IMG/VR virus record: IMGVR_UViG_3300046616_000188
Length of the DNA: 64,000 bases
Source of the DNA: a virus
Direction: 5' to 3' (one strand)
The position numbers were made by a program, and so were the translations under genes. The notes under the pieces were generated by a model. That model had not been told where the DNA came from. It made no database searches and worked only from the letters and a program-made list of their open reading frames with translations. The stretch's first letter is position 1. Each line of letters starts with the position of its first letter. Shown here piece after piece: positions 19,662 to 20,383 of this stretch.

Positions 19662-20269
19662 ACTTTATCCCCTTTGTCCCAAACGATTATCACAGATTCA
19701 ATGTATTCATCATTAAGGCTAAACGTATCTCGTGGCAAGTAATATTTTCTTACATCGGGGAGGAAACTTGAAATTTCATCGGCATATCTGACATGGATCA
19801 GTGCGACGAGTCTTCCACCTTCTCTGAGCAGAGCAGCAGCTTTCTCGATATGCGTGACGCAGTTCTTGTGAGGCGGATTCATGACGACGCGGTCAAACAA
19901 CACGCCGCAAAAATCGTGAAGCAGGAAATCCCTGTTGAGACAAGTAACGTGCTCGCCATAAAACGCGCTCAATCTGTCATAATTTCTTTTGTTAAGCTCA
20001 ACAGCCGTAACGGCATGGTTCCATGACAAATGTTCCACGATAGCGCCAGTTCCAGCGCTTGGTTCAAGAACATTATGACGTGGCATGATACCTGCCAGCG
20101 CAATCATATCTTCGGCTAACCATCTAGGAGTATTGGTCGCTGGAAGATTGGTGCGAAATTTGGTCCGGTGGGATAGGTTCGAACTACCGACACCTGCGTT
20201 TTCATCCCTTGTCCCTGTCGTGTCCTGATAGACGTTACTCAGTTCTTTTCTTGGATCAGCTTCACCCAT
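19658..20269 (-). CDS. Class I SAM-dependent amino-methyltransferase (N6-adenine type)
   Basis: TPRWLAEDM, VLEPSAGTG (motif I), VVMNPPH (motif IV); AGGA RBS before ATG 20269. Confidence 0.8.
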   Translation of the reverse strand: MGEADPRKELSNVYQDTTGTRDENAGVGSSNLSHRTKFRTNLPATNTPRWLAEDMIALAGIMPRHNVLEPSAGTGAIVEHLSWNHAVTAVELNKRNYDRLSAFYGEHVTCLNRDFLLHDFCGVLFDRVVMNPPHKNCVTHIEKAAALLREGGRLVALIHVRYADEISSFLPDVRKYYLPRDTFSLNDEYIESVIIVWDKGDKV

Positions 20270-20383
20270 TACTTGGTTCCTTTCGATCTAGCATTTCCTT
20301 CTAGTTCATTTGATAATCTAGGACGGATCAGGACTTCAATTATCAAACGGGCCGCAGTGCTCTACCAACTGAGCTACCACCAG
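20161..20383 (-). tRNA. Split tRNA-Phe(GAA)-like gene: 5' half 20383-20353, 147-nt insert 20352-20206, 3' half 20205-20161
   Basis: Joined halves give 76 nt: CTGGTGG TA GCTC AGTTGGTA GAGC A CTGCG|ATGAAAA CGCAG GTGTC GGTAG TTCGAAC CTATC CCACCGG A CCA; all four stems pair. Confidence 0.8.

Follow-up and report, generated by a model that had tools for sequence, protein, structure and literature searches.

The 147-nt insert that interrupts a tRNA-Phe-shaped gene on the minus strand of this phage DNA raises the question of what it folds into and what the fold is for. The original prediction was a pseudoknot, in which the loop of a 9-bp stem pairs with a distant tail and the resulting long-range helix encloses the ribosome-binding site (RBS) and start codon of a methyltransferase gene; it was read as a catalytic or processing fold, or as a translational switch. 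The stretch analyzed, hereafter the window, comprises 64,000 nucleotides and belongs to a large phage sampled in rhizosphere metagenomes; its genes include rIIA/rIIB, NAMPT, a ClpB-like ATPase, and a primase. Among contigs on record with the same methyltransferase, the longest measures 188 kb. The stretch is wholly or partly present in fifteen rhizosphere DNA sequencing runs, four of which were inspected for variants or joints and yielded none, only short identical contigs, and no RNA sequencing run containing the stretch was found among the runs listed.

The sole tRNA gene in the 64 kb, missed by plain aragorn and by Rfam, was recovered when introns were allowed (aragorn -i) as a tRNA-Phe(GAA) at c[20161,20383] on the minus strand. 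It is broken after nt 31, at tRNA position 31/32, by the insert (20352-20206), which matched no Rfam family. The 5' half (20383-20353, nt 1-31) contains the acceptor strand, the D arm, and the 5' strand of the anticodon stem, whose stems covary with those of homologs, and the remainder (20205-20161), which consists of the anticodon loop AUGAAAA, the 3' half, and an encoded CCA end, doubles as methyltransferase codons 22-37. The joined exons form a perfect cloverleaf whose anticodon is GAA; in the window, positions 33 and 37 are U and A. Among the homologs, the cloverleaf is kept and GAA, A73, and CCA never change, but position 33 can be U, C, or A and position 37 can be A, G, or C, and it is thus possible that the tRNA-shaped body is retained for recognition rather than for decoding. 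It counts as a tRNA only if the insert is removed. Upstream of the body, a terminator-like hairpin (20406-20390, minus strand) ends 6 nt ahead of it, and a promoter-like TTGACG-17-TATATA (20449-20420, minus strand) was noticed by eye, outside the promoter-scan listing because of its sixth-base rule.

The same arrangement recurs in other phages. In every case the body has the shape of a tRNA-Phe, an insert of 129-200 nt lies at position 31/32, and the same methyltransferase and cupin genes come next; the insert of all members starts with GCC or RCC, and its last nucleotide is G. Carriers available in culture include Rhizobium phage RHph_Y1_11, Caulobacter phages CcrColossus and CcrPW, and Brevundimonas phage Bajun. 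In RHph_Y1_11, found by tblastn with the methyltransferase, the split tRNA-Phe has a 152-nt insert, is contained entirely in the annotated methyltransferase CDS, and shows compensatory changes in the acceptor, anticodon, and T stems. Two tandem split copies, with inserts of 200 and 172 nt, precede the methyltransferase in CcrColossus and CcrPW, and likewise in Bajun. A split tRNA-Phe was found upstream of every methyltransferase homolog retrieved, including the loci L044 to L055, one IMG/VR jumbo phage, and L301 to L305, which were reached via the cupin. The first acceptor pair is C1-G72 in the window (20383/20164) and in all homologs except L047, which has A1-U72; bacterial tRNA-Phe usually has G1-C72.

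Other searches returned little. The 1.1-kb region had no DNA match in phage records, a search of IMG/VR for related loci with the methyltransferase gave none, exact patterns of the tRNA junction, sought in IMG/VR, metagenomes, and genomes, mostly hit chance matches in coding DNA or att-like tRNA fragments, and pattern searches with the RBS and loop motifs were swamped by chance matches. No published description of the module was found in the literature searched, in which the parent RNA family is thus undescribed; the CcrColossus methyltransferase, gp358, was described only as a possible rRNA methyltransferase (Gill et al. 2012).

Two other kinds of loci were also observed. In IMGVR_UViG_3300002054_000021 (L306, 1938-2014), an insert-free relative has the same C1-G72 tRNA-like body with a plain, non-canonical 7-nt loop (UAGAUUA), followed by a methyltransferase-like ORF and then a cupin with 52% identity. 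In unrelated IMG/VR and metagenome contigs (L008 at 668-763, L009, and L025), a tRNA-like gene carries an extra stretch of roughly 20 nt that begins with GCC directly after the 5' strand of the anticodon stem, which is the same junction.

The insert was then compared within group A, which comprises the window, L044, L045, L046, L047, and L301, the members whose inserts are alignable; these six sequences, partly aligned by hand, are too few for a formal covariation test. When the coordinates were recomputed, the 9-bp stem proposed at the outset was confirmed, with UUUGAUAAU (20347-20339) pairing with AUUAUCAAA (20317-20309) on the minus strand. If G-U pairs are counted, the stem extends to 12 bp (20349-20338/20318-20307), nine of them Watson-Crick, and closes a 19-nt loop (20337-20319) that contains CCUGAUCCGUCCU; this hairpin (20349-20307) is called H1. 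A hairpin of at least nine Watson-Crick pairs was obtained in only 6 of 1000 dinucleotide shuffles of the insert, and H1 thus stands out. As MAFFT alignment of the H1 segments alone misaligned stem to loop, the pairs were counted by script on motif-anchored coordinates. All of them were formed in the window (12/12), L044 (7/7, with three further pairs past a 2x2 loop), and L045, L046, and L047 (11/11 each). The stem changes on both strands among relatives, for example from U-A to A-U, from G-C to C-G, or from A-U to G-C, and the loop motif YUGAUC(A)C is kept. RNAalifold also found H1, although the automatic alignment was poor, and the equivalent in L301, traced by eye only, is less regular. 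From the shuffles and the pairing in homologs, we infer that H1 is a genuine, selected hairpin that displays a conserved loop motif.

The pairing between the H1 loop and the tail fared differently. As originally predicted, GUCCUGAU (20334-20327), inside the loop, is the exact complement of AUCAGGAC (20229-20222). An 8-nt complement anywhere in the insert was found in 75 of 1000 dinucleotide shuffles, and an 8-nt complement of the real loop was found in the shuffled downstream sequence in 28 of 1000 (21 of 500 in a second run, and 90 of 500 with G-U pairs). The pairing is therefore only nominally unusual (about 3-4% of shuffles), before correction for the many pairings that could have been picked. 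With homologous columns anchored on UGAUC for the loop and on the second AGUA for the tail, the eight pairs present in the window were reduced to 6/8 in L044, 4/8 in each of L045, L046, and L047, and 3/8 in L301. L044 lost the two end pairs and kept the six central ones with zero compensation, and in L047 the tail changed and the loop did not. The sum over L044 to L047 was 18/32, versus 13-18/32 in slid controls, and in any register the best loop-to-downstream complement in homologs was 4-6 nt long, a length matched by 251-348 of 500 shuffles (50-70%). The homologs thus provided neither compensatory changes nor more pairs than slid controls, and the pseudoknot, as a conserved element, does not survive comparison with relatives. 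Moreover, the loop of the window is pyrimidine-rich (UCC three times) and its tail is purine-rich (GGAC twice), with alternative registers such as CCGUC with GACAGG, and this repetitiveness favors accidental complements. The 8-bp loop-tail pairing is most likely fortuitous or, at best, lineage-specific.

The idea that a long-range helix encloses the RBS and AUG nevertheless retained part of its substance. The AUG does lie at 20269-20267, and it and the RBS are located inside a structure that appears to be conserved, but the helix named (20334-20327/20229-20222) is not the conserved one. The motif GAAAGGA (20284-20278), invariant in group A, consists of a GAA and the Shine-Dalgarno (SD) sequence AGGA (20281-20278) of the only start codon in frame. 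In the five sequences of the first alignment, the whole of GAAAGGA-N4-AGUAAUG is invariant; L301, added later, has GAAAGGA but a GUG start. After AGUA (20273-20270), the last two bases of the AUG and the two that follow them (UGGG, 20268-20265) pair with four bases located 9-11 nt downstream (UCCA, 20255-20252) to form helix H3, detected by RNAalifold (columns 120-123/133-136) and showing an A-U to G-C covariation. H3, flanked by AGUA on its 5' side and by A-GAA on its 3' side, is enclosed with the SD by a long-range helix between X (UAGAU, 20290-20286), just upstream of the RBS, and Y (GUCUA, 20233-20229). This X/Y helix of 4-6 bp is formed in 5/5 sequences of the first alignment, the sequences themselves differing and the register being shifted by 1 nt in the window and L044. 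As Y ends at nt 20229, the first base of the pseudoknot 3' strand, the original prediction came close to what is probably the real RBS/AUG-enclosing helix.

A second GAA...AGUA pair flanks the X/Y helix. Loop-E (bulged-G) motifs are recognizable in sequence by AGUA facing GAA, and the two pairs found here would resemble such motifs. As for a possible RBS-sequestering operator, H3 pairs the UG of the AUG and X/Y encloses the SD and AUG in 5/5 sequences, but the X/Y-H3 arm is thermodynamically weak (-5 to -8 kcal/mol by nearest-neighbor calculation) and the minimum free energy (MFE) structure of the window folds it otherwise. The single-sequence MFE of the whole 231-nt region was no better than that of shuffles (z = +0.58). 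A weak candidate hairpin, H2 (CUAG/CUAG with a 9-nt loop, 20304-20288), was picked out by eye, and a hairpin occupies the corresponding position in relatives; as it overlaps X, H2 and X/Y would be mutually exclusive in the window. We have moderate confidence that the X/Y-H3 arm is conserved around the RBS and AUG. It was also observed that the apical loops of H1 and H3 (the latter at 20264-20256 in the window, and also in L045, L047, RHph_Y1_11, and L055) contain short palindromes, UGAUCA or GAUC, replaced in other lineages by UAAUUA. As UAAUUA changes to UGAUCA, self-complementarity is preserved, which could reflect a kissing dimer or a DNA-level site.

Alternatively, the pseudoknot might be real in the lineage of the window and L044, with UCCU of the H1 loop pairing by turns with the true SD (AGGA, 20281-20278) and with a decoy resembling an SD in the tail (CAGGAC, 20227-20222), so as to form an anti-SD/anti-anti-SD translational switch. 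The eight perfect pairs have a nominal p of about 0.03-0.04, the loop-tail duplex reached -16.6 kcal/mol (duplexfold), a value equaled by 23 of 500 shuffles, the six central pairs are kept in the closest relative, L044, and the 3' strand abuts Y in such a way that both helices could stack. Against this stand the lack of any compensatory change, the loss of the end pairs already in L044, the absence of the pairing from L045, L046, L047, and L301, and the other registers allowed by the repetitive loop and tail. Furthermore, the loop-to-SD duplex was no better than shuffles in any member (-7.2 kcal/mol in the window, reached by 353 of 500). We therefore regard this alternative as possible but rather doubtful.

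The methyltransferase ORF (20269-19658, minus strand) encodes 203 residues, and PHROG DNA-methyltransferase families match it from residue 44-47, indicating that the domain begins near residue 44. The insert and the tRNA 3' half supply the codons of residues 1-40, which are disordered in the AF2 model, with pLDDT below 50 for residues 1-29. Throughout group A, the SD and ATG at tRNA-relative positions 115-119 provide the first in-frame start, an in-frame stop is located 18 nt upstream of it in 4/5 group-A sequences and 48 nt upstream in L047, and the frame stays open across the tRNA 3' half. The methyltransferase of the jumbo phages has its own SD and ATG after the tRNA. In the methyltransferase domain, 72, 89, and 23 of 149 first, second, and third codon positions are invariant, which is the usual coding pattern. 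For the 21 insert-encoded codons the corresponding numbers are 12, 8, and 9, the third position thus being invariant in 9/21 codons versus 23/149 in the domain. As conservation there is not codon-like, the constraint over the first 21 codons would act on the RNA, and with the low pLDDT this makes the N-terminal 40 residues look like a passenger translation of the RNA element.

The nearest folds of the methyltransferase are TrmN, Dim1/KsgA, M.TaqI, and Erm, at about equal level; profile matches to Erm/KsgA are weak, and the protein is an amino-methyltransferase with an NPP motif. The downstream cupin (19470-18976, minus strand; phrog_4786, E 1e-37) is cysteine-dioxygenase-like and travels with the module: it follows the methyltransferase in every split-tRNA-Phe locus with 45-84% identity (e.g., L001 3088-3588 and L002 2108-2596). 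A sequence search of solved structures gave no match for either protein. More distant IMG/VR cupin homologs, among L310 to L326, are located directly after ordinary tRNA-Ile(GAT) genes or within tRNA clusters, and the cupin family thus seems generally linked to phage tRNA genes. Between the two genes lies a 74-aa ORF (19661-19437, minus strand) that overlaps the methyltransferase stop at an ATGA; it matches no family, and weak homologs occupy the equivalent position in L044 and L045.

The similarity of the methyltransferase to rRNA-modifying enzymes bears on a further possibility, namely that the H1 loop mimics the 3' end of 16S rRNA and serves either as a binding site for an Erm/KsgA-like methyltransferase, in a substrate-mimicry autoregulation, or as an SD-binding element. 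With the 16S 3' end taken from an alphaproteobacterial MAG (L177), the H1 loop of L045, L046, and L047, (C)GGCUUGAUCACC, is identical to it at 11-12 of 12-13 nt, and that of RHph_Y1_11 holds an exact 10-nt match, GAUCACCUCC; only 0-11 of 1000 and 0-2 of 400 shuffles were as good for these loops. The weak Erm/KsgA profile matches and the presence of Dim1/KsgA and Erm among the top folds point in the same direction. However, TrmN and M.TaqI score equally well, KsgA and Erm target loop adenines and not this stretch, the comparator was chosen post hoc, and the likeness is not significant in L044 or L301. In the window, the H1 loop has no significant likeness to the 16S 3' end (anti-SD region), GGCUGGAUCACCUCCUU, as 903 of 1000 (ungapped) and 200 of 400 (gapped) shuffles scored equally well. 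Mimicry is thus an unlikely explanation. The same low probability applies to its fullest version, in which a 16S 3'-terminus mimic on a tRNA-Phe-shaped scaffold would be recognized by the Erm/KsgA/TrmN-like methyltransferase, with the cupin, as a substrate or an autoregulatory decoy, and the loop-tail pairing of the window would be the way in which this lineage masks the loop; if true, a phage RNA would imitate both tRNA and rRNA in order to regulate its own operon or to be modified by it. The H1 loops nearly identical to the 16S 3' end (GGCUGGAUCACCUCC) lie at 1813-1824 in L045, in L046 and L047, and at about 2441-2450 in L001; shuffles support the likeness in these four and not in the window. 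As a separate observation, an alphaproteobacterial MAG (L178, G005:C1:1382843-1382855) has a second, apparently non-rRNA place with CUGGAUCACCUCCUUU.

The conserved GATC/TGATCA of the loop could also function as DNA, being methylated by the adjacent methyltransferase or serving as its operator, with the hairpin incidental. TGATCA is palindromic and recurs in relatives, and the adjoining gene does encode an amino-methyltransferase with an NPP motif. Nevertheless, the H1 stem shows compensatory changes, which point to a folded single strand, and GATC is common across the window (319 sites versus 244 expected, with unremarkable avoidance or enrichment), so the loop GATC is not special. We consider this explanation the most improbable of those weighed here.

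The perfect cloverleaf with its GAA anticodon and encoded CCA, together with the constant insert ends (GCC or RCC, and G), would suit an insert that is excised by a small ribozyme or as a self-splicing intron, leaving a working tRNA-Phe. The three jumbo phages of the family encode RtcB, an enzyme that joins ribozyme-type ends. RtcB was found in these three only (CcrColossus, Bajun, and G001), where the methyltransferase starts after the tRNA, and is absent from RHph_Y1_11; in a window-like 120-kb fragment, matches to an Rnl2-type ligase were seen instead of RtcB. The reading as a catalytic or processing fold was not borne out by the models. An Rfam cmscan of the window at the gathering threshold, and of 20500-20050 at E up to 10, returned no ribozyme or relevant family, the homolog loci gave no ribozyme, group I intron, or other family, and the comparison with HDV-like and theta ribozymes, made with Rfam covariance models, gave no HDV-family match. 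As no ribozyme or intron model matched at E up to 5-10, this reading is unsupported. In addition, the insert has 147 nt, the methyltransferase starts inside it, positions 33 and 37 are not kept among homologs, and the anticodon stem has decayed in L301. Removal of the insert by self-processing thus appears very unlikely.

Three specific candidates were examined and rejected. For a group I intron, there was no RF00028 match and the 5' exon ends in G31 rather than U, only the terminal G of the insert being present. YrlA/Y RNA (RF02553), for which the gathering score is 69, reached no more than 24-25 bits, and this solely across the tandem copies of CcrColossus and CcrPW; it gave nothing in the window. 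For a bulge-helix-bulge (BHB) tRNA intron, inspection by eye showed the 5-bp anticodon stem, a 0-1-nt bulge facing a 7-nt bulge, and a short closing helix, but no 3-4-3 BHB, and the splicing endonuclease PF01974 is absent from five related phage records.

Altogether, the region is probably an internal domain of a tRNA-Phe-shaped phage RNA that is also the leader and translation-initiation region of a methyltransferase-cupin operon. The X/Y-H3 arm would have to open for ribosomes to reach the methyltransferase start, and ribosomes translating the tRNA 3' half would prevent the tRNA-shaped body from folding, and vice versa; for these two reasons, the folded RNA may serve as a translational operator, possibly bound by a protein via the H1 loop. 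Since the RBS and AUG lie within conserved structure, the translational-control part of the original prediction stays viable, and an operator working through helices other than the loop-tail pairing is plausible. The parts of the insert that appear to be under selection are H1 with its loop motif and the RBS/AUG arm, not the 8-bp loop-tail pairing, which can guide mutagenesis. The parent element, a tRNA-Phe-shaped RNA fused to the start of a methyltransferase-cupin operon, is present in many alphaproteobacterial phages, and if its insert is a translational operator or a protein-binding platform, phages would have a new means of linking gene expression to a tRNA-like fold.

Structured leaders near the RBS that set translation are known from the T4 gene 32 leader pseudoknot and from the tRNA-like operator of E. 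coli thrS, whose leader mimics the tRNA arm recognized by the encoded enzyme. The present RNA likewise has a structured leader adjoining the RBS, but it differs in that the leader lies within a complete cloverleaf with CCA, relatives do not keep the pseudoknot pairing, and no binding protein is known. HDV-like and theta ribozymes, small pseudoknotted RNAs located 3' of phage tRNAs, are similar in their association with tRNAs and their pseudoknotted folds; here the element lies inside the anticodon arm and the nested double-pseudoknot pattern was not recognized. Group I introns interrupt the anticodon loops of bacterial tRNAs such as cyanobacterial tRNA-Leu and Azoarcus tRNA-Ile, the smallest known measuring about 205 nt. 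They have in common with our insert a structured sequence in the anticodon region that ends in G, whereas the present insert has 147 nt, is located at 31/32, and has ends that pair together rather than a P1 formed with the exon.

The closest resemblance in phages is to the "enigmatic" introns reported in tRNA genes of several types in the Lak megaphages of Prevotella (Devoto et al. 2019, PMC6784885). In both cases, phage tRNA genes are broken by conserved inserts that have no Rfam match and no known removal mechanism. The Lak introns are not linked to a methyltransferase/cupin operon and contain no start codon, whereas the insert described here interrupts a tRNA-Phe-shaped body at position 31/32 and includes both the RBS and the AUG of the gene that follows.
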